A program made the position numbers and the translations under genes. From a virus (lineage: Duplodnaviria > Caudoviricetes): a stretch of DNA of 64,000 bases. The notes under the pieces were generated by a model. It searched no databases. It was not told the origin of the DNA and saw only the letters and a list, made by a program, of their open reading frames with translations. The stretch's first letter is position 1. The number at the start of each line of letters is the position of its first letter. Where the stretch lies: IMG/VR virus record IMGVR_UViG_2824317532_000001, positions 32,001 through 96,000 of that record, one strand, 5' to 3'. Shown in pieces: positions 3,075 to 48,245 of the stretch.

Positions 3075-5597
3075 ATGCCTGACGTGGAACTCGCCCGCCG
3101 TGAAGGCGTCGAGCTGGTCCGCACCGGCAGGTTCCAAACCCTCACCGGCTCGTGGAACCCGACACCGAAAGACATTCAGGCCGCCGTCGAGGCCATGGAC
3201 TGCCCGGCGATCCGAAAGCCGGTTATCCGGCTTGGGCACACCGACGATCGGTTCGTGCCTCGCGGCGACGGGGAGCCGGCACTCGGCTGGTTCGAGAACC
3301 TGCGTGCCGCTGACGGCGGGCACACGCTGGTCGCCGACCAGGTGACGCTGCCGTGGCTGCATTCGGTTCAGGCTGCCGCCTACCCATCGCGGTCGATCGA
3401 GGGCAACTACAACCATCGCTGTTCCGAAGGCCACCTGCACCCGTTCGTCATTCACACCGTCGCCCTGCTTGGTGTAACCCCGCCCGGGGTGCAGACGCTG
3501 CGGTCGTTGAACGACCTGCCAGAGATGCTCGGGGTCGCCGCAACCGGTGAGGTACCCGAGGGTGCCGAGCATGTGCAGGTGACGGTCCTGGCGGGCCGGC
3601 ACTCGTTCGACGAGTCGAAACATGCCCGCGACGACGACGGCAAGTTCACGTCCGGGTCCGGTGGCGGCGGTGGTGACGGATCGCCTGTTCAGCCTGCCCC
3701 AGCCTCCGGGCTGAAACGCAATGAGCGGCTCGCGAAACGCATCCCTCTCGGCAAGGGCGAAACGTATGTCGGCAGCGGCACCGTCCGTGACGGCGGGTTC
3801 GCGGTCGCCGCCGTGGACGGCCCGGACGGGCGCACCGTCCGGCTCGGTGTCGGCATCGACCCCGACGAGATCGGCCAGTGGTCCGGCGCCAACCGGGGCG
3901 GAACGGTCGTCCTCGACCAGGAACGTCTCGACCAAACCCGCGAGGCGATCGCCCAGCTCCTCGAAGCGGCAAAGACCGGAAAAGCCAAGGTCCGTGCCCT
4001 GCATAAGGAATGGGACCGGCTCGAAGCGGCCGAGAACAAACTCTTTGGCAAGTCGTCGATGTCGGAGTCCGACGAGAACAAGTTGGACGAGATCCGGGAA
4101 CAGCGGAAAGCCAACGAGGACGCGCTGGACAAGCTCGCCGACTTCGGTGTCCTCGAAGAGGGCGTGATTCACGCCGAGTGGGGTGACCTGCACCTGCAGG
4201 CGTACATGTCCGACGACAGCCCGCAGTTCAAGGTCGAGGTGAAAGCGAGCCGGGAAGCGCCGTCCCGGTTCGACGAGATCCTCGAAGTGCGACACCTGAC
4301 CAGGCTCGCAGCCCTACTGGAGAAGGCGGGCGCCGCGAAACCGGTGCAGGCCGCCGCCGCGCAGGTTCAGGCCGCCGCCGAGGTGCACACGGGCGCGATG
4401 GTGGCGCTCATCCCCACGCCCGAGGACGCGGCACGGCTGGCGGTCGAGGGCGGGGAACCGGCCGAGGAACTGCACGTCACGCTCGCTTACCTCGGTGAGG
4501 CTGCTGCCCTCGGCGCCCGCGGCAGGCAGGACGTCATCGACGGCGTCTCCACCGCAGCCAACGGTCTCCCCCAGTTCGAGGCCGAAGCGTTCGCGTTGAA
4601 CGTCTTCAACCCGCCGGGTGCGCAACGCGACGACGGCCAAGATCGGGACACCTGTCTGGTGCTCGGCTTGTCCGGGGACCCCATCGACGCCGTCCACGAC
4701 CTGGTGGCCGAAGCGCTACGTGAGGCGTTGTGGTCGATCGACGTCCCGCCGCAGCATCGCCCGTGGCACGCGCATATGACCTTGGAGTACACCGAGGATC
4801 TGTCGAAGCTGGCCAACCTGGTCGACCGGATCGGGCCGGTCCGGTTCGACCGGATCCGCGTGGCGTTCGGCGGCGAGCACATCGACATCCCGCTGATCGG
4901 CCCAGACGAAGACGACATGGTCGCGGCGAGTGCCGCGATCCGTGGCCGGATCCCGCCGATCCGGGAACGCCTGGCCCGGCTGGTGGCCGCGGCTGCACCC
5001 GCCGATCCCCCGCCGGAAGACCCGGCATCCAGTCTCCCGGCCGCCGAGCCGGAGCCCAACAAACAAGAGGAGGACCTCGTGTCCCTGAGCGATGAACTGC
5101 GCTCGCGGCTCGGCCTCGCCGACGGCGCCGAGGAGGTCGACGCTCTGGCGGCGATCGACGCGCTGAAGGCGGCGGCCGAGAAGAGCCCCGAGCCGACGGC
5201 GGAGATGATCCAGGCTTCGGCCAACGCGACGGCGAAGGCCGAGCAGGCGGAGGCGGAGAAGGACGAACTCCGCAAGGAGGTCAACGTCCTGGCTTCCCGC
5301 ATGGAGCAGGTCACCACCGAACTCGCGGCGGCGAAGGCCGAGCAGGCGGCAACGGTGAAGGCTTCCGTGCTGGATGACGCCATCAAGCAGGGCAAGATCA
5401 AGCCCGCGGACAAGGCGCAGTGGGAAACCGACTACGACGACGCCCCAGCCGCGATCACCCGGGTTCTCGCTTCCATCGCCCCCGGCACTGCGGTTCCCGT
5501 GATGGCGGCCGGGCACGCCGGGCCGGCCGAACCGACCAGCGGCGACAGCCTGGACGCCGAGTACGAGCGCCTCTTCGGCGAGAAGGCTGGTGCCTGA
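3075..5597 (+). CDS. Capsid maturation protease/scaffold polyprotein with internal 2H phosphoesterase domain
   Basis: N-term PVIRLGH/PALGW/YPSRSIE protease-like motifs; HVT (~4473) and HMT (~4773); C-term coiled coil plus AIKQGKIKPA scaffold motif. Confidence 0.82.
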   Translation: MPDVELARREGVELVRTGRFQTLTGSWNPTPKDIQAAVEAMDCPAIRKPVIRLGHTDDRFVPRGDGEPALGWFENLRAADGGHTLVADQVTLPWLHSVQAAAYPSRSIEGNYNHRCSEGHLHPFVIHTVALLGVTPPGVQTLRSLNDLPEMLGVAATGEVPEGAEHVQVTVLAGRHSFDESKHARDDDGKFTSGSGGGGGDGSPVQPAPASGLKRNERLAKRIPLGKGETYVGSGTVRDGGFAVAAVDGPDGRTVRLGVGIDPDEIGQWSGANRGGTVVLDQERLDQTREAIAQLLEAAKTGKAKVRALHKEWDRLEAAENKLFGKSSMSESDENKLDEIREQRKANEDALDKLADFGVLEEGVIHAEWGDLHLQAYMSDDSPQFKVEVKASREAPSRFDEILEVRHLTRLAALLEKAGAAKPVQAAAAQVQAAAEVHTGAMVALIPTPEDAARLAVEGGEPAEELHVTLAYLGEAAALGARGRQDVIDGVSTAANGLPQFEAEAFALNVFNPPGAQRDDGQDRDTCLVLGLSGDPIDAVHDLVAEALREALWSIDVPPQHRPWHAHMTLEYTEDLSKLANLVDRIGPVRFDRIRVAFGGEHIDIPLIGPDEDDMVAASAAIRGRIPPIRERLARLVAAAAPADPPPEDPASSLPAAEPEPNKQEEDLVSLSDELRSRLGLADGAEEVDALAAIDALKAAAEKSPEPTAEMIQASANATAKAEQAEAEKDELRKEVNVLASRMEQVTTELAAAKAEQAATVKASVLDDAIKQGKIKPADKAQWETDYDDAPAAITRVLASIAPGTAVPVMAAGHAGPAEPTSGDSLDAEYERLFGEKAGA
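5079..5597 (+). CDS. Nested in-frame scaffolding protein
   Basis: AGGAGG SD just upstream of in-frame GTG 5079; analogous to Mu I/Z and lambda C/Nu3. Confidence 0.6.
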   Translation: MSLSDELRSRLGLADGAEEVDALAAIDALKAAAEKSPEPTAEMIQASANATAKAEQAEAEKDELRKEVNVLASRMEQVTTELAAAKAEQAATVKASVLDDAIKQGKIKPADKAQWETDYDDAPAAITRVLASIAPGTAVPVMAAGHAGPAEPTSGDSLDAEYERLFGEKAGA

Positions 5598-14044: not shown

Positions 14045-14587
14045 TTACTGCGGATAGCTCATCTCCAGCCGCGCATGGTTGGCGTCGAGGCACCAGTCAC
14101 AGTTGCACCCAGCGATGCGGTAGATCGCGTCCTCCCACTCCTCCTTCCACTCGTGCCCAATGATGCAGCGATAGCGGATCGTGAGGTTGCCTTCGGCCCA
14201 TTCCATCCGTGTTGGCAGGTGCCCACGGTGCTTGCCGGTGACCGCGTAAGCGCACTTCCAGCACGAACCGCTGAAATGGGCTGGGTCAGTAGGTGGCCCG
14301 ATCACGACGGCGGCGAGTCTCCGCTTGTCGGAGTTGTAAGTGATGTTGTGAACCGGACGCTCGGTGACAATCGCGGACTTCTCGGCGGCCTCGACCTCCT
14401 TGCGGGTGTCGAAGTGCTCCACCTTGACCGTCATAACGTCCCGCCACCAGCCTTTGAGCTTGGCGTGGTCATACCAGCGGATTCCGGGGTCGCCGGTGAT
14501 GCCGATGTAGAGCAGGGCATCAGAGGCGTCGTAGAAGCGATAAAGCGTCTGATCCTGGTCGGCATCTTCTTGTGCAACGATGGTCAC
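14045..14587 (-). CDS. GIY-YIG nuclease family protein
   Basis: LYRFYD..LLYIGIT...R...EKSAIVTERPVHN; C-terminal Cys cluster. Confidence 0.85.
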   Translation of the reverse strand: MTIVAQEDADQDQTLYRFYDASDALLYIGITGDPGIRWYDHAKLKGWWRDVMTVKVEHFDTRKEVEAAEKSAIVTERPVHNITYNSDKRRLAAVVIGPPTDPAHFSGSCWKCAYAVTGKHRGHLPTRMEWAEGNLTIRYRCIIGHEWKEEWEDAIYRIAGCNCDWCLDANHARLEMSYPQ

Positions 14588-29987: not shown

Positions 29988-30037
29988 GCCGCGAAGCTAC
30001 CCGCCCTGATCGCTCAAATCACGGGGCTGGCCTGGAA

Positions 30038-30280
30038 TTACGCGGCTGTAGTTTCCTGCGCCGGCTCGACCGCTGACCACAGGCCACGACTCAGCATTCG
30101 CTCCGCCCGGTCACACGCGCCCCGCTCGGTCCAGTACGCGTAGCCGCCGCGCCGGGAATGCCAGGCCACCCACCGGCCGTCGCCGGTCTCCCCCAGCCGC
30201 ACCGTGACCGGGCCCTGCCGCCACGCCCGGGTCCAGGTCACCGCCGCGAGCTCGTCTGCCGTCATGCGTTCCGCCCCCAT
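30038..30280 (-). CDS. Hypothetical protein
   Basis: TACGGT-N6-ATG leaderless start. Confidence 0.55.
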   Translation of the reverse strand: MGAERMTADELAAVTWTRAWRQGPVTVRLGETGDGRWVAWHSRRGGYAYWTERGACDRAERMLSRGLWSAVEPAQETTAA

Positions 30281-30411
30281 GTGCGCACCGTAACGGCGTC
30301 CGCGCATCTGGCGCACCAGCCACGCCCTGTGGAGCACAGCCGCACCCCACATATGCACCACAGATCACTACACCGCCCCGCAGATTCCTACACAGCCCGG
30401 GAGGGCCCGTC

Positions 30412-30756
30412 ATGAAGATCAGCCGCGAGCCCGCGCTGTACCTGACCCTGTTCGCGACGCTGGTACGGCTGCTCGCCGCGTTCTGGCTCGACCTGTCCGA
30501 CGGCCAACAGGCCGTTCTCAACGCGACCGCCACCGCGGTCGCGGGTCTCATCGTCGCCGTCTGGGTTCGCCGCGACGGGCAGGTCGCCGCCCTGCTCGGT
30601 GTCGTCCAAGCCGTGCTTGCCCTGGCGGTCGGGTTCGGCGCGGACCTGTCCGCGGAGTCGCAGGCGGTCATCATGTCGTTCGTCGGCACCGCCGCCGCAA
30701 TGTTCGTCCGCACGCAGGTCGACGCGAAAACGCCAGCCGTCGTACACGCCGACTAG
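30412..30756 (+). CDS. Holin-like protein
   Basis: MKISREPAL...FVRTQV; duplicated TM hairpin (LDLSDGQQA / ADLSAESQA). Confidence 0.75.
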   Translation: MKISREPALYLTLFATLVRLLAAFWLDLSDGQQAVLNATATAVAGLIVAVWVRRDGQVAALLGVVQAVLALAVGFGADLSAESQAVIMSFVGTAAAMFVRTQVDAKTPAVVHAD

Positions 30757-30927
30757 CCCCGTTCTCCAACGTTGCTCCAAGGTTCTCCAAGAACTTGGAG
30801 CTGCCACTGATCGGCGTCGGCCGGTCTCGCGCCCCCGCGAAGTCACACCCGGCCGAACGCCATTGCGCCCCATCCCGTGAGCTGCCCGCCAGCAGCCACG
30901 GGATGGGGCGTTTCTCTCGTACCCGAG

Positions 30928-31815
30928 CTAACGCCGCCAGACGTTGACCGTCGCCGTCTCCAGCGAATCAGCACCCTCCGGCCCCTTGACGTGACTAGCA
31001 ATCCACGTCGGGCGACGCAACGACCGCTGCGGGCCGTACGCCTGATCCCGCCAGTGCCCGCGGACGATCCACCGGTGCTTGTAGTGTCGGCCGGGCTGGT
31101 CGGGGTCGAGTGGAGGTTGCCCGGAGAGTCGGTACTGTCGGCGCAACTCCACGAGGGTCACCTCGGGATCACCGCGGCCAGCTCGGCCGTAAGCAGCCCG
31201 GATCTTGCGTTCGACCTCGACGGGAACCCGGTCGATGACCGTAGGCTGTTGCATGAGTGCCCACGCCGCAGCCAGGGTGGTCAGCACGGTCCTGTCCCGG
31301 TCCGGCAGCTCGCCCGGGTCCTGCCAATTGTCGTCAACGGCCAAACTCTGCCCGGCAATTGGTACCAGCGGCGGCACCGCAGTGGTGTCGATCCGGGCAC
31401 CGCGCTCGGCAAGCTGGTCTTCGAGCCGGCCGCGGGCCACATAGTAGGAGACCAGCAGCCCTTGCGGGTGCGGACCCCACGACACGGCATCCACGGGGAT
31501 CGGCACGTTCTCGTAGTCGAGGGTGCCAATGCCGCCGTCGAAGACCAGCAAACCATGAGTCGAGGGCCGATCTGCATCCGTCCACCGCACCTGCGGGATC
31601 GTTTCAGCGGCGCCGACGGACAACGCGGCCATCTCCGGCGCCACCCAATACAGATCGGCAACGCCGAGGCTGCGGGCAACGTGGTCGAGTTGGGCAGCCG
31701 TGTCGTCGCGCCCGGATCGGGCCAGACTCGCACGCAGCGCGCTGCCTGGGTCGGCAAGCAGGCGTTGCAGCCCGTCACGGACCTTTGGGAGGCGGGAGGC
31801 TGTCCAGTTACTCAC
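30928..31815 (-). CDS. Conserved hypothetical protein (VRGHWR family)
   Basis: HRWIVRGHWRDQAYGP...WIASHVKGP. Confidence 0.75.
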   Translation of the reverse strand: MSNWTASRLPKVRDGLQRLLADPGSALRASLARSGRDDTAAQLDHVARSLGVADLYWVAPEMAALSVGAAETIPQVRWTDADRPSTHGLLVFDGGIGTLDYENVPIPVDAVSWGPHPQGLLVSYYVARGRLEDQLAERGARIDTTAVPPLVPIAGQSLAVDDNWQDPGELPDRDRTVLTTLAAAWALMQQPTVIDRVPVEVERKIRAAYGRAGRGDPEVTLVELRRQYRLSGQPPLDPDQPGRHYKHRWIVRGHWRDQAYGPQRSLRRPTWIASHVKGPEGADSLETATVNVWRR

Positions 31816-32225
31816 GGCTGGCCGTCCGGGGCAGGGTACGCAATGCGCAGGCCTGGCACTTCAAGGGCGATCCGGGCGACGACTGCCCGGTGCCACGAGG
31901 CCGGGAACTCGACCTCAGGGTGGGCTGCGTGGTACTCGTGGTCGTTGCGGTACACCAGCACGCCCGGGTCGGGAATGCCGACGAGTTTCTCGACACATCC
32001 GCCGATGAACTCGCCGGTACGCCGCTCTATATCCTCCATGGCCAGTCGCACCCCGTCGGGGATCGGGTATTTTCCCTGCTCCCAGTGGCGCACGGTGCGG
32101 GCCGAGACTCCGAGGTGGCCGGCGAGCCAGTCGCCGGTGAGGCCGAGGTGTTCGCGGACGACCCGGAACTCCGCATCGGTCATGCGCTCGTCTTCCGGCA
32201 TGCCGGGCGGGTCGGTGTACTCCAC
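31812..32225 (-). CDS. XRE HTH regulator, DUF1870/Aca2-like
   Basis: MTDAEFRVVREHLGLT..LAGHLGVSARTVRHWEQGKYPIPDGV...WHRAVVARI. Confidence 0.75.
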   Translation of the reverse strand: MEYTDPPGMPEDERMTDAEFRVVREHLGLTGDWLAGHLGVSARTVRHWEQGKYPIPDGVRLAMEDIERRTGEFIGGCVEKLVGIPDPGVLVYRNDHEYHAAHPEVEFPASWHRAVVARIALEVPGLRIAYPAPDGQP

Positions 32226-32244
32226 GGTGTCTCCCTTTGGGTAA

Positions 32245-32280
32245 ACAGTGACCCCGGCCGAGACGGTCCGGGGTCACTGT
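32245..32280 (-). terminator. Hairpin between acidic gene and HTH gene
   Basis: ACAGTGACCCCGG...CCGGGGTCACTGT. Confidence 0.55.
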
Positions 32281-32293
32281 CGGATGGTTCTGG

Positions 32294-32602
32294 TCAGGCA
32301 GGCTCGACTTCGGCGTACATGGCGTTGTCGACGATGTCCCAGGCGGCGGTGCGGGTCCAGGCGTTCTTGGTGAGCATCTCGTCGGCCTCGTTGGCTGCCT
32401 TGGCGAGCTTGTCCTCGTCGTTCACCAGCACGGTCAGGTCGGCGGTGAAGATGATGTTGTCGCTCATCGCGTACTCGGCGGTTTCGTTGCCGGCGTCGTC
32501 GAGTCGGTAGCCGGTGATGGTGGCGGTGCCGATGCTGAGGTCGCAGACGTTATCCGCGACTACATCGGGGGCGGTGGCGATGCAGGCGAAGTGAGTGGTC
32601 AT
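32294..32602 (-). CDS. Small acidic protein, anti-defence (Acr-like) candidate
   Basis: GGAAGGA SD; 102 aa, Asp/Glu excess; first gene of unit. Confidence 0.65.
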   Translation of the reverse strand: MTTHFACIATAPDVVADNVCDLSIGTATITGYRLDDAGNETAEYAMSDNIIFTADLTVLVNDEDKLAKAANEADEMLTKNAWTRTAAWDIVDNAMYAEVEPA

Positions 32603-32660
32603 GGCCGGTTCCTTCCGGTGGGGTCTGGGGCTGTTTCCCCTGACCGCTGACACCACAGTA

Positions 32661-32679
32661 GCTTCCTAAAATAGGAAGC
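32661..32679. promoter_or_regulatory. Palindromic operator next to TACTGT -10 (minus strand)
   Basis: GCTTCCTA-AAA-TAGGAAGC. Confidence 0.7.
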
Positions 32680-32733
32680 GATAGGGGTTGTATCGAACGA
32701 AGGACCCCGCAGCCTCTCTCTGGTTTCGGAGCA

Positions 32734-33024
32734 CTACTCGTAGCCGGCCGCCAGCAACAGCCCGGTCAGCGCGTCTCGCAGCTCGGCGGTGTCGAGCAGC
32801 GCGATGTCTACGGAAACGCCGACCATGTGGGCGGCGTTGATGGTCAGCCACGTCGGCCCGTCACCGGTCTGGGTGAGACAGGCGGTGACTTCACCGCGGT
32901 CACCGATCCGGCGCCGGGCGCCCACCCGAAACCGCCGGGATCGGTGCCGCACCAGACGGCCAGCACCTTCGTCGTGTTCGCACCACGGCGGGTGCCCGGC
33001 ACGCTCGTTGCGGGGCCGGGTCAC
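32734..33024 (-). CDS. Hypothetical protein (HPPWC..H family)
   Basis: GTGA-coupled; HPPWCEH motif. Confidence 0.55.
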   Translation of the reverse strand: MTRPRNERAGHPPWCEHDEGAGRLVRHRSRRFRVGARRRIGDRGEVTACLTQTGDGPTWLTINAAHMVGVSVDIALLDTAELRDALTGLLLAAGYE

Positions 33025-33743
33025 CGTGACCGCCTCCACTGGAGACGCTTGCGGACCCGGGCTGCGGCTTTCCGGCGCCCGCGTCTGCGGATGGGGCAGC
33101 CCGCCCACACCCATACCGGCAGCACCAGGGACGCCACCACCACGGCGAGGGCCGTCTCCTGACGCCACTGCCCGTACACCAGCAGCGCGAGCCAGCCAGC
33201 CAGCAGCAACACCGCCTGTGCGACGCCGAGGCCGGTCAGATGCCGCCGCCGCGAACTCCATGGGCGCCGGACCTTCGGCTGACGCGTTGGCTGTACGGGT
33301 GCGGACTCCCACTCGAGCAGGCCCTCTCGCCGCCGCTCGTCAACGGGCACCCACCGCGGCCGACCCTCCCGGTCGTCGCGTTCATGGCGCTGGTCGACCA
33401 GCACCCACTTCGGCACGTGGCGGGGGTTGTCCTCGTTCAACAGCCAGTTCAGGCGAGGCCGCTCACCAGTCGGTGGCTCTTGAATGAACAGGCGTTCCAT
33501 CTCGTCGAGTTCGACGTCGGTACACAGGCCTTCCCACAGCACTCGCGGTGATCCGACGATCAGGTCGGCCCACGGCTGCGAGTCGCGGTGCTGGTTCTCC
33601 CGGCCCCGGCCACGTTGCCGAGTTTGGCCGACGTAGTCGTTGCGGACGATCTGCCCCGTGTCGTGGTCGATGACGTCGAGGCCGTAGACGACACCCCGGT
33701 AGCGGGCATCGGCGCGGCGTCGGGACGAGTAGGTCGCGGTCAT
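33021..33743 (-). CDS. GIY-YIG-like domain protein with C-terminal TM helices
   Basis: GVVYG...DYVGQTRQ..R..QH...E..FI...P.LN; two hydrophobic C-terminal segments. Confidence 0.6.
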   Translation of the reverse strand: MTATYSSRRRADARYRGVVYGLDVIDHDTGQIVRNDYVGQTRQRGRGRENQHRDSQPWADLIVGSPRVLWEGLCTDVELDEMERLFIQEPPTGERPRLNWLLNEDNPRHVPKWVLVDQRHERDDREGRPRWVPVDERRREGLLEWESAPVQPTRQPKVRRPWSSRRRHLTGLGVAQAVLLLAGWLALLVYGQWRQETALAVVVASLVLPVWVWAGCPIRRRGRRKAAARVRKRLQWRRSR

Positions 33744-33802
33744 TGAGGCACTTCCCCACCGGGCAGATCGCCGTACAGCGATCCGGCCGCTACCCTCGGC
33801 TC

Positions 33803-33997
33803 ATGTCCGATGCTGAGATCGCCCGGCAACTCCAGCGGCTCGTCGATGACGCCGAGAAACGAGACCGGGTCGCCGCCGAACGCCATGCTGCCCTCATCAA
33901 AGCCGTCACAGTCGGGTTCGCCGTGGTAGCCAAAGAGATCCGCGATGGGTTCACCCTGATGCAGCACACCATCATCGACGAGTTCCGGCAGCGCTGA
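33803..33997 (+). CDS. Small helical protein antisense within transfer operon
   Basis: TACCCT-N6-ATG; GC3-rich codons. Confidence 0.55.
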   Translation: MSDAEIARQLQRLVDDAEKRDRVAAERHAALIKAVTVGFAVVAKEIRDGFTLMQHTIIDEFRQR

Positions 33998-33999
33998 CG

Positions 34000-36351
34000 T
34001 CACGCCATCACCTCGTCCAGCACACCGATCTGCTCGGCCCCGGACTCGGTCAGCCAATAGCCGCCACGGCCATCGGTGTCGAGGATCTGCTCCCCCGCCA
34101 GCTTGTTGACCGCGTTGGTGCAGGCCCGAGTCTTGATGACGGATCGGACAGCGGCAGCCAGGTCGCCGAACTGGACCGGGTCGCGGTCGCCGTCGAGCCA
34201 CCGGTCGGCGAAGAACCGGAGTACCGCCTCCCGGCCGCCCGCGGGCGGGGTGGTGTCGCCGGGTGCGGAGTCCAGCAGGTTCGACGGGATTCCCGCACCG
34301 AGGATCTCGGCCGGGTCCATGTTGTCGAACGCTTCGAGCCGCTTCCACCGGTCCGCGTATAGCGGGCCTGCCGCTCCGAGCACGGCCGTTTCCAGGCTGA
34401 CGGTGTCACCCCTGGTCATGACGTCCCACAGGTCGCCGGCGTAATCCGATCGCATCCGCATGCGGGCGGTCGCCGAGTTGTAGCCGACCCCTGCAGCGGT
34501 GGTGCCGTCCTCCCATTCGGCCGGCAGGGCGGACGGGTCGCCGGGCATCTTCCCGCCGGGCCAGGCGGCGGGGCCGGTGAGCCGGTCGGCGGTGCGGAAC
34601 ACGGTGACGACGCCGGAGGCGAGCTGGGCGCGCAGCACACTGTCTTTGAGTTCGGACAGCAGCGGTGACTGCACCAACAGCCGCACCTTCACGTTGGCCT
34701 TACGCCCGGACTTGGCGAGCAGCGCCAACAGTTTGACGATCTCCTTGCCGACGTCGGGGTCGTTCATCGGCAGGTGCGCCTCGTCGATGGTGATCGACAG
34801 CAGGGGGAAGTCCGGGGAGACCTCCACGTATTTGACGCGCCGCTGCACCACTGTCCCGTCGGGCCGGGTCTCGGTGACCCGCATCCGTGTGATCAGCAGG
34901 TTGCGGGCGAGCATCACCGTCACGGCGGTGCGCAGCATGACGAGGATTTCCTCGTTCGTCGGCGCGAACCAGTCGACACCGTCGCGCACGTCACCGAGAG
35001 ACTGGCCCATCTGCGGGTCGCCGACCCACGACACCACCCGCCCGGACTTGCGTTCCAGGGCGAGGAGCAGGTTGACGTATTCGCTCTTGCCGGATCCGGT
35101 GCAGCCGGCGATGAGTTCCATGAGGGCGCCCCAGCCGGGCCGCCAGAACGGGTGCCGTCCGCGGTTGCCGTCTTCGAGGGTCATGGTTTCGGCGGTGCCA
35201 GTGGTGAGGTCGATGCCGTCGCCGTTCCAGCGGCTGCCGGTCGAGAGTGGGCTGGTCCGCTGGACGAGGATCATGGCCCGGTTCGCGTCGAGGGGATCCG
35301 CGATGATCGACACCATGGAGGTGCCGACCGAGTAGGCGCGGGCGATCTTCCGGACCGGTTCGGGCATGTCGAACTTCTCGGGATCCAGGTCCGAGTCGTC
35401 GTGCGCCACGATGATCGCCGACCAGCCACCGACCGACGCCTGAATGTTCTCGAGGCTGGTGCCGTGCAGCACCCGACCCTTCGCGGACACCTTCTCCCAG
35501 CGGGCGAGCACGTACTCGCGCAGCAGGTCTTCCTCGCTGGGCTGCGGCGTGTCGTCGTACAGGTCGTCCTCGTCGTCGAGCGGCACAGGCGGGCGGAGTG
35601 CCTGGGCGCGCCGGTCAGCCAGCCACCGCCGGTACGGGCGGGAGCCGACCACCCCGAGCCCGAACAACGCGGTGAGCGCGACTGCCGCATGGTCAGCGAA
35701 GCCGATCACGTCGGTTAGTTCGATCCACAGTCCGGCCGCTGCCGCCAGGTAGCCGGCGCCGCGCGCGCGGCGGGCAATGGTGTCACGGGTGAGTTCCTCG
35801 TCCGTCTCGGCCTGCCGGCGTAGCCAGGCACGGGTCATCCACCAGGACCCGGCCACGATGGCGGGGATCGCCGCGAACTGAGCGACCTCTCCCGCCAGTG
35901 ACAGGTCAGCGACGTCCGCCGCCACACCCGCCATCCCCACAAGGCTGGTAGCGGCGGCACTGTTCACAGACCCCGTGTGATCCCGGTACAGGCGCCCCCA
36001 CGGAATGGAGATGCGCCGGTCGCTGGTCTTGTGAAGGCGTACCCCGCAGATACCGCACAGCGGGCGTTCGATCTTCGACTTGGCGGAGAACCACTGCCCG
36101 CTGTCCGGGCACTCGGGGCACTCCCATTCCACGTGGGTGACCTCGCCGCTGTCGTTGACCGGCACCGGCTGCCGCCGTGCTTTCACGGTCTGCCCGTTCG
36201 GGCCGGCGTGGTGCCAGGAGAACGACACAGCGCCGGACGGCAGCAGCAGCTTGCCGTCCAGGTCACGCGACGCCTGACGGGCACGGCCCTGCTGCGGTGC
36301 GCCCGGAGGTCCGCCGTTCGGTAGCGGCACGGGCCGGTTCTCGGTCTTCAC
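34000..36351 (-). CDS. FtsK/SpoIIIE-family conjugative DNA translocase (TraB-like)
   Basis: TM block, Walker A IAGCTGSGKS, Walker B ITIDEAH, SGRKANV..Q, LRAQL, C-terminal wHTH-like; N-terminal CxxC pairs. Confidence 0.85.
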   Translation of the reverse strand: MKTENRPVPLPNGGPPGAPQQGRARQASRDLDGKLLLPSGAVSFSWHHAGPNGQTVKARRQPVPVNDSGEVTHVEWECPECPDSGQWFSAKSKIERPLCGICGVRLHKTSDRRISIPWGRLYRDHTGSVNSAAATSLVGMAGVAADVADLSLAGEVAQFAAIPAIVAGSWWMTRAWLRRQAETDEELTRDTIARRARGAGYLAAAAGLWIELTDVIGFADHAAVALTALFGLGVVGSRPYRRWLADRRAQALRPPVPLDDEDDLYDDTPQPSEEDLLREYVLARWEKVSAKGRVLHGTSLENIQASVGGWSAIIVAHDDSDLDPEKFDMPEPVRKIARAYSVGTSMVSIIADPLDANRAMILVQRTSPLSTGSRWNGDGIDLTTGTAETMTLEDGNRGRHPFWRPGWGALMELIAGCTGSGKSEYVNLLLALERKSGRVVSWVGDPQMGQSLGDVRDGVDWFAPTNEEILVMLRTAVTVMLARNLLITRMRVTETRPDGTVVQRRVKYVEVSPDFPLLSITIDEAHLPMNDPDVGKEIVKLLALLAKSGRKANVKVRLLVQSPLLSELKDSVLRAQLASGVVTVFRTADRLTGPAAWPGGKMPGDPSALPAEWEDGTTAAGVGYNSATARMRMRSDYAGDLWDVMTRGDTVSLETAVLGAAGPLYADRWKRLEAFDNMDPAEILGAGIPSNLLDSAPGDTTPPAGGREAVLRFFADRWLDGDRDPVQFGDLAAAVRSVIKTRACTNAVNKLAGEQILDTDGRGGYWLTESGAEQIGVLDEVMA

Positions 36352-36450
36352 GGAAAAACTCCAGGTGTGGTCGGGGTGGTGGTGCCGGGCTGGTGCCGCA
36401 ACCGCCAAACCAACAGAGGGTTCGGCGATCACGGGTGGAGTCCGGCAGGG

Positions 36451-44937: not shown

Positions 44938-45288
44938 GTGACTTCCCGGGCAGCACCGTCTACGGCGTGGCAGAGCAGGCCAGGCCGACGTGCGCTCGTC
45001 GCCGCCAACCTGAGCGTGCTGCGGGGGCCGACGTCGGGAACTGTCGTCCTACCGAACCGGCTGGTGTGGGCGCCGGATCCGGCGGGCCGTTTCGACCTGG
45101 ACGACCCTTTCGACCGGTTGCGGGTGTACGAGATTGTGCTCCGTGAGGCGGTTCAGGAAGCCGAGCTGCGTACGTGGCTAAACGGCACGCTGCTGACCGC
45201 ATTGTGGCCACACCTGTACCTGCCTCGTGGTGTACGGCAGGCGTGGGAGACCAGCCACCCGCAGTTGGCGGCCGTACCAGCACAGTGA
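44938..45288 (+). CDS. Putative antitoxin upstream of AbiEii
   Basis: LRGPTSGTVVLP..L.W, YEIVLREA, LWPHLYLP..VRQAWE; GTGA-coupled to toxin. Confidence 0.7.
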   Translation: MTSRAAPSTAWQSRPGRRALVAANLSVLRGPTSGTVVLPNRLVWAPDPAGRFDLDDPFDRLRVYEIVLREAVQEAELRTWLNGTLLTALWPHLYLPRGVRQAWETSHPQLAAVPAQ

Positions 45289-45938
45289 CGATCGAATCCG
45301 TAGACGCCTTCCATCTACAGGTTGCCCGGACCGCGCTGGCAGTCGCCAACCGGTACGGGTTCGCGCTCGGCGGCGGTCTGGCGCTGATCCTGCACGGCAT
45401 CGTGTCCCGGCCGACCGAGGACGTCGACGTGTTCGGTGAGGAGGGCTGCAGCGTGGTCGGCGCCGCGGCCGCGGTGACGGCGGCCCTGCAGGATGCGGGC
45501 ATCCGGGTCGAGCCGGTGGACATGAGTTCGGAGGTCGTTGACCTCGACTATCTGATGGCCGAACTGGTCGCCTACCGGCCCGATGGTCGGGCGGTGCGGT
45601 TGAGTTTCGGTCATCTGTCCCGCACCCGGCAGCCTGTGCTGTTGGACATCGGCCCGGTGATGGCCGTTGACGACCTGATCGCGTGGAAGGTCGCCGCGCT
45701 GGTAAACAGGGCTGAGGTTCGTGACTTCGTGGATGTGGCGGCGTTCCTCGCCGACCGGTCCCCCAGCACGCTGTTGGCGTTGGCGCGGACGGTCGATCCG
45801 GGCCTGTTCGAGGAAGATGTTGCTGCGGCGGGACGCAGGCTGGATCAGACTCCGGATCGGGCGTTCGCCGCCTACGGGCTCGACGCCCGCCAGGTGGCGC
45901 AGATGCGGGCCCGCTTCCATGACTGGCCTCGCAGCTAG
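45285..45938 (+). CDS. AbiEii/AbiGii-family nucleotidyltransferase toxin
   Basis: FALGGGLAL..HG..SRPTEDVDVF; K..AL..R...RDFVDV. Confidence 0.88.
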   Translation: MTIESVDAFHLQVARTALAVANRYGFALGGGLALILHGIVSRPTEDVDVFGEEGCSVVGAAAAVTAALQDAGIRVEPVDMSSEVVDLDYLMAELVAYRPDGRAVRLSFGHLSRTRQPVLLDIGPVMAVDDLIAWKVAALVNRAEVRDFVDVAAFLADRSPSTLLALARTVDPGLFEEDVAAAGRRLDQTPDRAFAAYGLDARQVAQMRARFHDWPRS

Positions 45939-46850: not shown

Positions 46851-47393
46851 TCAGTGCTGCGAGGTGGCAGCCTCCCTGTTCGCAGCTGCGATAGCGAGCG
46901 CCCGCCAACGCAGAGCTTGCTCCACCTCCGGCTCGTCCTCGACGAGCTCGTACCGCACCGGCCGGCCCTGCTCGTCGTGGTACATCACCATGAGGCGCTG
47001 ATCGTCGAACAGCCACCAATCTTGAGGGCCGATCGCCGGAATGATGCCCTCCGCCTCGGCGACACTGCGAGTCAGGTACTGCACCGTTTCACCGGATTCA
47101 CGGTTCCAGCGGTCCATCCACCGCATCCACTGCTGGTAGTCGGTAGGTGGCGTGTCGACGACCCGAACTCGGCCGATCGTTTTGCCGCTCGAGGTCTGCT
47201 GCCGCACCTGGGCCATCCACTCCCCGAGCTCCTTGTTCTCGGTCGGCGGGATCGGCCGCCCTGCCAGCCACGCCTGCCACTGATCCTGCTCGTAGGTCAC
47301 GTCGTACGCGGCCTGCTGTTCCCACCGCCAGGCAGACCGTTGGTAGCCGGCGAGTTGGGCCCAGAATTCGTCGTTGGTGATAGTGCGGCGCAC
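46851..47393 (-). CDS. DUF6879-like protein
   Basis: SAWRWE, GRVRVVDTPPTDYQQW, DWWLFDD. Confidence 0.8.
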   Translation of the reverse strand: MRRTITNDEFWAQLAGYQRSAWRWEQQAAYDVTYEQDQWQAWLAGRPIPPTENKELGEWMAQVRQQTSSGKTIGRVRVVDTPPTDYQQWMRWMDRWNRESGETVQYLTRSVAEAEGIIPAIGPQDWWLFDDQRLMVMYHDEQGRPVRYELVEDEPEVEQALRWRALAIAAANREAATSQH

Positions 47394-47402
47394 AGCGATC
47401 TC

Positions 47403-48245
47403 CTAGGCGGGAAGGTGATTGATGGCGTCGAGGATGAGGTGGCGGGCGTCTTCGCCGGTGACGGCGTCCTGCCAGTAGCGAGCGAACAGGGCTTCGAGGA
47501 TCTCCACCTTGTCCGCCAAATGTTCCTCGTCGGTGACGGCGGTTTCGATACATGCCTCGTCGTCGAAGATTTCGAACGATGATTCGGTGTTGCTGTTTAC
47601 CGGCCGGGACAGGGACGGGTAGATGGCGAGGGTGACGTTGTCGAGGCCGATGGCGGAGCTGAGGTGGAACAGTTGGGCTCGCATGATTGAGGTCGGGAAT
47701 CGGCGTCGCCGGAGCACGGGCTCGTCGATGAGGAACGTGAACTGCTTGTCGGGGTCGGTGAGGAAGCGAACCGACTCCTGCCGTTTGCGGACGGCGGCGG
47801 CCACGTCGTTGACGCTGCCATGTTTGTCGTGGTGCTCCTGCAGGATGGCCCGCATGTAGTCGGGGGTTTGCAGGTAGCGCGGGATGAACGTCATCTCGAA
47901 GAACGTGAACCGCTTGGTGCGGGCTGCGCGTTTGGTGTAGTCGTCCTGGATGGGCTCCTGGCCATGGGCTGCGCGTTTGCTGTAGGTGTCGCGGCTGGCT
48001 TCGGCTTCGGCGGCCATGTGGATGAGTTGGTCGCGGAGGCGTTCGTTCATGCCGGTGGCCTGCGCCCAGGCGGTGATTTCGTCGGCGGTGGGGATCTGTC
48101 GGCCGCGTTCGATCTTGGAGACCTTGAACTTGCCGGTGCTGGCTGCCCAGCCGAGCATCTCGGCGAGTTCGGTGCCGGTGAATCGTGCGTTTTCGCGGGC
48201 GGCTTTGAGCCTGCCGCCGATGGGGTCACGTTCTTCGGTGGTCAT
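47403..48245 (-). CDS. XRE HTH + DUF5753 regulator
   Basis: KVSKIERGRQIPT; IPRYLQTPDY, FLIDEPVL, AVTGEDAR. Confidence 0.88.
   Translation of the reverse strand: MTTEERDPIGGRLKAARENARFTGTELAEMLGWAASTGKFKVSKIERGRQIPTADEITAWAQATGMNERLRDQLIHMAAEAEASRDTYSKRAAHGQEPIQDDYTKRAARTKRFTFFEMTFIPRYLQTPDYMRAILQEHHDKHGSVNDVAAAVRKRQESVRFLTDPDKQFTFLIDEPVLRRRRFPTSIMRAQLFHLSSAIGLDNVTLAIYPSLSRPVNSNTESSFEIFDDEACIETAVTDEEHLADKVEILEALFARYWQDAVTGEDARHLILDAINHLPA

Follow-up and report, generated by a model that had tools for sequence, protein, structure and literature searches.

Aca2 represses transcription through an inverted repeat that overlaps the promoter and represses translation through two hairpins in the 5' untranslated region (UTR), as laid out in the main text of PMC13551039 (NAR 2026). 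According to that text, the Aca2-operon cargo that has been characterized is anti-CRISPR, no function is known for most Aca-regulated genes, copies of the RNA motif also stand between genes inside operons, and "actino" and "proteo" versions of the motif were described in Nature 2024. Here, we analyze a stretch of 64,000 nucleotides from IMG/VR virus record IMGVR_UViG_2824317532_000001 (positions 32,001 to 96,000 of the record; hereafter, the window, taken over its full 64 kb, with a G+C content of 67%), which belongs to a siphovirus-like prophage of Actinoplanes and carries, adjoining the lysis genes, a minus-strand operon of three genes. These encode a small acidic protein (open reading frame [ORF] A), a helix-turn-helix (HTH) protein of the Aca2 type, and a larger protein (ORF C). 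The three genes probably constitute a cargo operon under Aca2 control, an actinobacterial version of the published acr-aca2 type, residing in a siphovirus-like prophage. Given that PMC13551039 describes Aca2 operons with the "actino" motif, the architecture is of an already published kind; what is new is the cargo, a candidate for a role in anti-defense. The main text of PMC13551039 contains no occurrence of "AcrVA2", "terminator", or "acidic", terms that its supplement or the Nature 2024 paper may cover. A full-text search of the literature for Aca2 together with Streptomyces or words beginning with "actinobacteri" found no study of such cargo, and no characterized anti-defense protein from an actinomycete phage turned up in these searches.

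The HTH gene product is, by sequence comparison, a member of the Aca2 family. Its Pfam matches are HTH_31 (E 1.1e-7) and, over residues 15-107, Aca2_YdiL (PF08965; 22.3 bits). Among 717 candidates from a word-indexed search, 674 are relatives at E<=1e-3; the best 120 of these 674 are 73-100% identical to the window protein and come from Streptomyces, Actinoplanes, Salinispora, Amycolatopsis, and others. Many of them carry PF08965, and relatives with 73-90% identity are listed with this family in the precomputed table. In a search with a profile built from 32 relatives, the crystal structures of Aca2 were matched, namely 8w35, 7vjo, and 7b5j (E 2.6e-12 to 4.3e-11) as well as 7ezy. In the best of these matches (8w35_A, E 2.6e-12), positions 15-108 of the 139 in the profile align with positions 4-98 of 120, a span that takes in both the HTH and the C-terminal dimerization domain. 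The resemblance to Aca2 noticed in an earlier, sequence-only reading of this locus therefore extends over both domains of the protein. HigA-2-type antitoxins are matched by the same profile at E 0.001, over the HTH part only. A nucleotide search of phage records returned only Streptomyces phage Gilgamesh, over the HTH gene only. By analogy with characterized Aca2, the window protein would bind both DNA and RNA.

We collected 72 loci around relatives of the HTH gene, 42 of them genomic and 30 viral. Leaders were picked by a regular expression, and removal of 9 identical copies, 3 chance matches, and locus L030, where the first leader hairpin is duplicated, left 43 non-identical regions for alignment. 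It is the recurrence of the same layout in these 43 loci that argues against chance, the single-copy signals being modest. In 42 of the 43, TTGnnn is followed by a spacer of 17-18 nucleotides and TAnnnT, with the palindrome lying within the spacer, and TAnnnT stands 10-14 nucleotides before the first leader hairpin in every aligned locus; the promoter is thus predicted from conservation among relatives only. The palindrome is the sole match in the window to CTTCCTANNNTAGGAAG when up to 2 mismatches are allowed (0.07 matches expected by chance; 7 of 100 shuffles gave a match), and the 64 kb contain no second operator copy.

The two operator half-sites change together from locus to locus, being TTCCTA in 30 loci, TTCCAG in 7, CCCTA in 5, and TTCCGG and TTCCGT in 1 locus each. 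All 5 CCCTA operators accompany an HTH protein with N or D at position 41, a residue other than His at position 47, and R at position 52 of the recognition helix, a combination present in 0 of the 39 loci with other operators (Fisher p 9e-7 for operator type against recognition-helix combination, uncorrected for relatedness). In a maximum-likelihood tree of the 44 HTH proteins, the five CCCTA loci are scattered and 5 changes are needed to account for them, with well-supported branches alone forcing at least 3. Whether it came about by convergence or by module exchange, such co-variation of operator and helix ties the HTH protein to the palindrome. Indeed, the palindrome had earlier been taken for an operator, and both its position between the -35 and -10 elements and its co-variation with the recognition helix argue for that role.

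Downstream of the predicted promoter, the transcript would begin with a leader of two hairpins. The first (32622-32645) has the form GGTCAGGGG-AAACAG-CCCCAGACC, with 4+4 base pairs around an A.A mismatch (GGUC-A-GGGG/CCCC-A-GACC), and corresponds to the 5'-UTR stem of the sequence-only reading; the second (32605-32618), CCGG-AAGGAA-CCGG, which holds the Shine-Dalgarno sequence in its loop, was absent from that reading. RNAalifold, run on the 43 loci, returned two hairpins with 12 pairs, 5 of which show compensatory changes. With the MAFFT alignment left unfitted, pairing holds in 98% of cells, and none of 500 shuffles attained the covariation observed; pairing falls to 57-63% when the partners are slid by one column. 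The occurrence of G-U pairs at three positions favors an RNA motif rather than a DNA site.

A covariance model of the leader (R1) has a single strong match in the window (65.2 bits, E 6.4e-13) and detects no second copy there, the next best match scoring 9.3 bits (E 1.7). The model matches 57 of the 72 loci, and the leader is found also upstream of gp86 of Streptomyces phage Gilgamesh. Among the 15 loci lacking a match, three (L041, L066, and L071) have short upstream DNA and one (L044) has a doubtful match, the rest having HTH proteins that are at most 63% identical. Six related loci contain internal second copies of the leader between cargo genes of the same operon, located at 3356-3405 in L053, 3585-3635 in L055, 1832-1881 and 3602-3651 in L074, 3507-3559 in L019, 2769-2816 in L052, and 3398-3445 in L009. 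Rfam, searched with positions 30000-34000 of the window at E up to 1, gave no match. We infer that the leader is an instance of the published "actino-motif".

The position upstream of the repressor gene is occupied by variable cargo. In most loci, a same-strand gene ends 56-90 nucleotides before aca2, and the product of the gene next to aca2 has an isoelectric point (pI) of 4.1-4.6 in 41 of 46 parsed loci. The adjoining gene is also acidic in three loci outside the automatic parse (L030, L043, and L074), and L068 (3389-4384) and L069 (3398-4387) encode cargo and HTH as one fused protein. Clustered by BLAST at E<1e-4, the cargo proteins of up to 130 residues fell into 8 groups, with 13, 12, and 3 members plus five singletons, and 2 further acidic groups exist among longer cargo proteins, for a total of about 10 families unrelated in sequence. 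Some of the longer proteins are two groups fused, and none of 15 cargo representatives had a Pfam match above the cut-off. Variable genes upstream of the HTH homologs, encoding small acidic proteins, are in line with the acr-aca-like unit that had been proposed earlier. Besides the acidic genes, 10 of the 46 loci (L009, L019, L021, L026, L028, L043, L052, L053, L055, and L056) have, first after the leader and before the acidic gene, a gene for a basic protein beginning with MNTT; members of this family have 167-176 residues and a pI of 9.5-10.3, and the one in L026 weakly matches HTH_17 (E 0.0012, below the cut-off).

ORF A contains 19 Asp and Glu residues against 5 Lys and Arg (pI 4.05) and falls in the 12-member cargo group, which we call Fam1. 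Only two relatives of near ORF A length came out of the word-indexed search; a profile of 15 Fam1 members matched 269 cluster representatives at E<=1e-3, either as standalone proteins or as a domain of longer ones. Scanning of 49 longer Fam1 proteins revealed Aca2_YdiL in 2 and HTH_31 in 2, at the C-terminus, and the sequences joining an ORF A domain to Aca2 or HTH (P0126, P0188, P0177, and P0193) look like genuine fusions. The AlphaFold model of ORF A (predicted local distance difference test [pLDDT] score 90.2) is a beta-sheet with one helix. BFVD yielded two matches to it at E<=0.001, both without a name, the NCBIfam scan gave no match for either ORF A or ORF C, and tblastn of ORF A against phages found Thermobifida phage P318 only. 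In this phage, orf41 (L001, 3638-4801) encodes a 387-residue acidic protein composed of a 'TTSYG.W' cargo domain, an ORF A-type domain, and a further region, with no HTH or aca2 gene after it and no leader nearby. By its association with an Aca2-type control region, ORF A is a candidate anti-defense protein. An ArdA identity, suggested by an Atlas row automatically named ArdA (76 residues, template modeling score 0.58, below the family-naming bar), found no further backing; in a search of 48,161 solved chains, no ArdA or Ocr chain ranked within the top 50, and Pfam found no ArdA domain in the 49 longer family members.

ORF C had previously been described as a coupled gene of a VRGHWR family. 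The coupling stands, through the GTGA overlap with the HTH gene; the family can now be further identified as AcrVA2-like, which the earlier description had missed. ORF C matches phrog_15934 (E 5.9e-44), a family of unknown function. An assignment to PF26125 (PF26125.1) is precomputed for many of the 287 relatives of ORF C, including P0274 at 84% identity, and in the nearest Atlas clusters PF26125 (AcrVA2-like) appears on 27-46% of members with a score of 0.98; a local Pfam scan of ORF C and four homologs for PF26125 gave no match. When the ORF C model, built with 31 homologs (pLDDT 85.8), was searched with Foldseek, three AcrVA2 chains ranked first (best E 1.7e-3), and the predicted structure displays the three-domain AcrVA2 fold. 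In the C-terminal G-H-W-R motif of the family, G-H-W is invariant and R nearly so; across the 31 homologs, H254 is invariant and R256 nearly invariant. These two residues share the H-x-R spacing of AcrVA2 H286 and R288, a likeness of spacing and not of residue alignment, and the latter pair is conserved and needed in the C-terminal region of AcrVA2, as reported in a preprint (bioRxiv 10.1101/2022.11.29.518452). Thus, as modeled, ORF C is AcrVA2-like.

Genes resembling ORF C directly follow aca2 in 11 of the 72 loci. A link between Fam1 and such a neighbor was considered and set aside; by hand count, the Fam1 domain is present in about 6 of the 9 distinct loci where ORF C follows directly and in about 13 of the other loci, too weak an enrichment for a claim. 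According to the same preprint (bioRxiv 10.1101/2022.11.29.518452), AcrVA2 relatives are common on mobile elements, mostly where Cas12a is absent, and one of them is the plasmid fertility inhibitor FinQ, which lowers the mRNA of the transfer genes of a rival plasmid. Because the relatives reside mostly in Cas12a-free bacteria, the target of ORF C probably differs from Cas12a.

Two strong hairpins punctuate the operon. The one following the cargo gene has perfect arms of 13 nucleotides at 32245-32257 and 32268-32280 (-34.5 kcal/mol, z -4.5). Judged by eye, without a count, most of the related loci inspected also have a long GC-rich hairpin between the last cargo gene and the ribosome-binding site of aca2, with a sequence that differs from locus to locus. 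The hairpin is possibly a partial terminator or a 3' stabilizer of the cargo transcript, and transcription may be attenuated there. The other hairpin lies beyond ORF C and is terminator-like (-48.7 kcal/mol, z -6.8).

On the plus strand of the window, the genes for portal, protease, major head protein, and tape measure lead to a holin gene as the last one (30412-30756; phrog_9752, E 2e-27). A block of minus-strand genes runs toward the holin, and its last three genes constitute the operon, the elements of which are listed in Table 1 in the order of transcription. All elements named in the sequence-only reading (the palindrome, -10 box, stem, ORF, hairpin, HTH gene, and coupled gene) were confirmed on the minus strand, with positions that equal or lie close to those stated there.

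Table 1. Features of the Aca2-type operon, with positions in the window.
Feature	Positions	Strand	Remarks
-35 position, TATCGC	32678..32683	-	TTGnnn in relatives, mostly TTGCGC
Palindromic operator, GCTTCCTA-TTT-TAGGAAGC	32661..32679	-	Fills the -35/-10 spacer
-10 box, TACTGT (TAnnnT type), abutting the palindrome	32655..32660	-	TAnnnT in all 43 aligned loci
5' leader RNA motif, two hairpins and the ORF A start codon (32600-32602)	32600..32650	-	Covariance model R1, covariation
ORF A, 102-residue acidic cargo of Fam1 (name given here; family otherwise unnamed), candidate anti-defense protein	32294..32602	-	
GC-rich hairpin between cargo gene and aca2	32245..32280	-	13-nucleotide perfect arms
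aca2-type gene, 137-residue HTH repressor with an Aca2/YdiL-like C-terminal domain	31812..32225	-	Pfam and family profile
ORF C, 295 residues, AcrVA2-like; GTG start codon and HTH stop codon overlap in GTGA	30928..31815	-	
Terminator-like hairpin common to the convergent operon and holin gene	30866..30910	.	14-nucleotide perfect arms

Several other genes of the window deserve mention. Just upstream of the operon promoter, a 96-residue product is encoded at 32734-33024 (minus strand), with a weak match to DUF6907 (E 0.0021, below the cut-off). Farther along the same leftward block, an 810-residue protein (34000-36432, minus strand) shows weak similarity to FtsK/SpoIIIE (Pfam E 0.023; phrog_1358 E 0.0022); it is DNA-translocase-like, of a sort known from actinomycete conjugative elements and encountered here within a tailed prophage. 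A gene at 45174-45938 (plus strand) encodes an AbiEii nucleotidyltransferase toxin domain (E 5e-12), and a DUF6879 protein (46851-47393, minus strand) adjoins an HTH_31/DUF5753 regulator (47403-48245, minus strand); the AbiEii gene and this pair are likely prophage-borne defense or toxin-antitoxin genes. Within the structural module, a GIY-YIG domain gene on the opposite strand (14045-14587, minus strand) likely encodes a homing endonuclease. An 840-residue protein (3075-5597, plus strand) has matches to head maturation proteases and, at residues 424-617, also to PHROG 'RNA ligase' families.

A number of observations speak against the reading of the locus as a functional Aca2-controlled anti-defense operon or narrow what can be concluded from it. 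Among the 43 aligned copies of the promoter, the window's own is the sole one without TTG, and a simple sigma-70 consensus scan detected no promoter at the operon; given the degenerate -35, which the sequence-only reading had not noted, expression of the operon in this prophage may be weak, or the operon may be in decay. Taken alone, the window HTH protein scores 1.5 bits below the Aca2_YdiL cut-off of 23.8. The folding energy of the window leader is unremarkable (z -0.76, with 42 of 200 shuffles folding as well). The predicted fold of ORF A gave no match among solved structures, and no similarity to solved anti-CRISPR or DNA-mimic structures was found. ORF C is 8% identical to AcrVA2 in the structural alignment, and its sequence profile, run against PDB sequences at E up to 10, retrieved no AcrVA2 chain. 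Moreover, since AcrVA2 relatives mostly reside in Cas12a-free bacteria and include FinQ, an AcrVA2 fold does not prove an anti-CRISPR role. Both ORF A and ORF C are candidate inhibitors. On balance, the comparisons support the earlier interpretation of the locus, with the operator-helix co-variation and the AcrVA2-like neighbor adding weight to it and the damaged -35 taking some away.

We envision that a housekeeping-type promoter would fire once the phage DNA becomes active, leading to synthesis of ORF A, then Aca2, and then the AcrVA2-like protein. A dimer of Aca2 would subsequently bind the palindrome in the -35/-10 spacer and turn transcription off. By analogy with Aca2 of phage ZF40, it would also bind both leader hairpins, the second of which presents the ribosome-binding site, so that cargo translation would be blocked as well. 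The hairpin before aca2 probably passes only part of the transcripts, which would allow the cargo to be made ahead of the repressor. ORF A, as one of about ten unrelated acidic proteins found in this slot, would most likely inhibit a host defense or a competing mobile element, whereas ORF C would most likely act like AcrVA2, silencing a chosen target at the level of the mRNA or the nascent peptide; anti-defense activities, and targets to match, are what we would predict for both. The proposal can be carried further, in that the ORF A family and about ten other acidic slot families could be new-fold inhibitors of actinomycete defenses, the hairpin between cargo and aca2 an attenuator setting a high cargo-to-repressor ratio, and the AcrVA2-like protein a silencer of a target other than Cas12a by the same mRNA-destroying route. 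We advance this extended version tentatively, as somewhat more apt to fail than to hold.

The same genes could be viewed as serving conflict among mobile elements or protecting the lysogen, with ORF A and the AcrVA2-like protein, kept at a low level set by Aca2, blocking phages and plasmids in the way that FinQ blocks F transfer. Tight autorepression fits steady low expression in a lysogen, the prophage carries other conflict genes (AbiEii at 45174-45938; DUF6879 with the HTH_31/DUF5753 regulator at 46851-48245), and FinQ belongs to the AcrVA2 family according to the preprint cited above (bioRxiv 10.1101/2022.11.29.518452). However, the same operon and leader occur in Streptomyces phage Gilgamesh, with no integrase nearby in the record, and the Aca2-operon cargo characterized in PMC13551039 is anti-CRISPR. 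Although neither point is decisive, we consider this explanation unlikely.

An altogether internal function, in which Aca2 itself is the target of the acidic protein, a DNA mimic or anti-repressor that would bind the HTH surface and time the switch in a regulatory circuit directed at nothing outside, appears quite improbable to us. The strongly acidic composition of ORF A (19 Asp and Glu against 5 Lys and Arg) would suit it, as would the natural fusions of ORF A domains with Aca2 or HTH (P0126, P0188, P0177, and P0193) and the fused loci L068 and L069. Yet about ten unrelated families beside an HTH protein that stays 70-90% identical are a poor fit with a specific partner, and Acr-Aca fusions with outside targets are known, AcrIF24 being one described in PMC9638941. 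A toxin-antitoxin or abortive-infection module, with the HTH protein as a HigA/Xre-type antitoxin and a neighbor as the toxin, could also be read from weak matches of the HTH protein to Xre-like and MqsA-type models and, at E 0.001, to HigA-2 antitoxins. The HigA-type matches, however, cover the HTH part only and trail the two-domain Aca2 matches by 9 orders of magnitude. Nor is there a conserved cognate neighbor, the upstream gene belonging to any of about 10 families and ORF C coming directly after in 11 of the 72 loci, and such a module seems highly improbable.

In actinomycetes, the main producers of antibiotics, both phage work and genetic engineering are held back by restriction, BREX/Pgl, and CRISPR barriers. 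The conserved Aca2 control region flags cargo genes and thereby offers a short, ranked list of candidate inhibitors of these barriers, one such candidate family being that of ORF A with its 269 cluster representatives. An AcrVA2-type protein under Aca2 control in the actinomycete phylum would help test whether the AcrVA2 family silences other targets. In addition, the change from S41/H47/K52 to N/D41, non-His47, and R52, along with that from TTCC to CCCTA half-sites, amounts to a ready-made specificity pair for orthogonal repressors.

The described systems that resemble this operon do so in different respects. Ocr and ArdA are acidic DNA-mimic anti-restriction proteins. ORF A, being small, strongly acidic, and encoded where early expression would be expected, is similar to them by functional analogy only; it differs in that the 50 best solved chains held no ArdA or Ocr and the 49 longer family members no ArdA domain, and in its predicted fold, a beta-sheet with one helix. 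Fusions of the AcrIF24 type are paralleled by the ORF A relatives that are fused to Aca2 or HTH, whereas in the window the two are separate genes. ORF C resembles AcrVA2 of Moraxella bovoculi (7ci1, 7ci2) and FinQ in the PF26125 assignment of its close homologs and in the C-terminal H-x-R spacing, and differs from them in its 8% identity, in the lack of a sequence-profile link, and in its actinomycete host. The closest likeness of the operon as a whole is to acrIF8-aca2 of Pectobacterium phage ZF40 (Aca2 structures 7b5j, 7vjo-7vjq, and 8w35) and to the actino-motif class. Unlike in these, the cargo in the window is not a known Acr, the repressor has an extra conserved N-terminal stretch, EYTDPPGMPEDERM, a strong hairpin lies between the cargo and aca2, and a coupled AcrVA2-like gene follows downstream. 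At the same time, the operon shares with them a repressor of the Aca2 type with two domains, whose gene comes after small cargo; a promoter containing an inverted repeat; a leader of two hairpins that begins just past the likely transcription start, the second hairpin containing the ribosome-binding site; and cargo that varies among loci, 6 of the related ones having additional copies of the leader between cargo genes, as described in PMC13551039.

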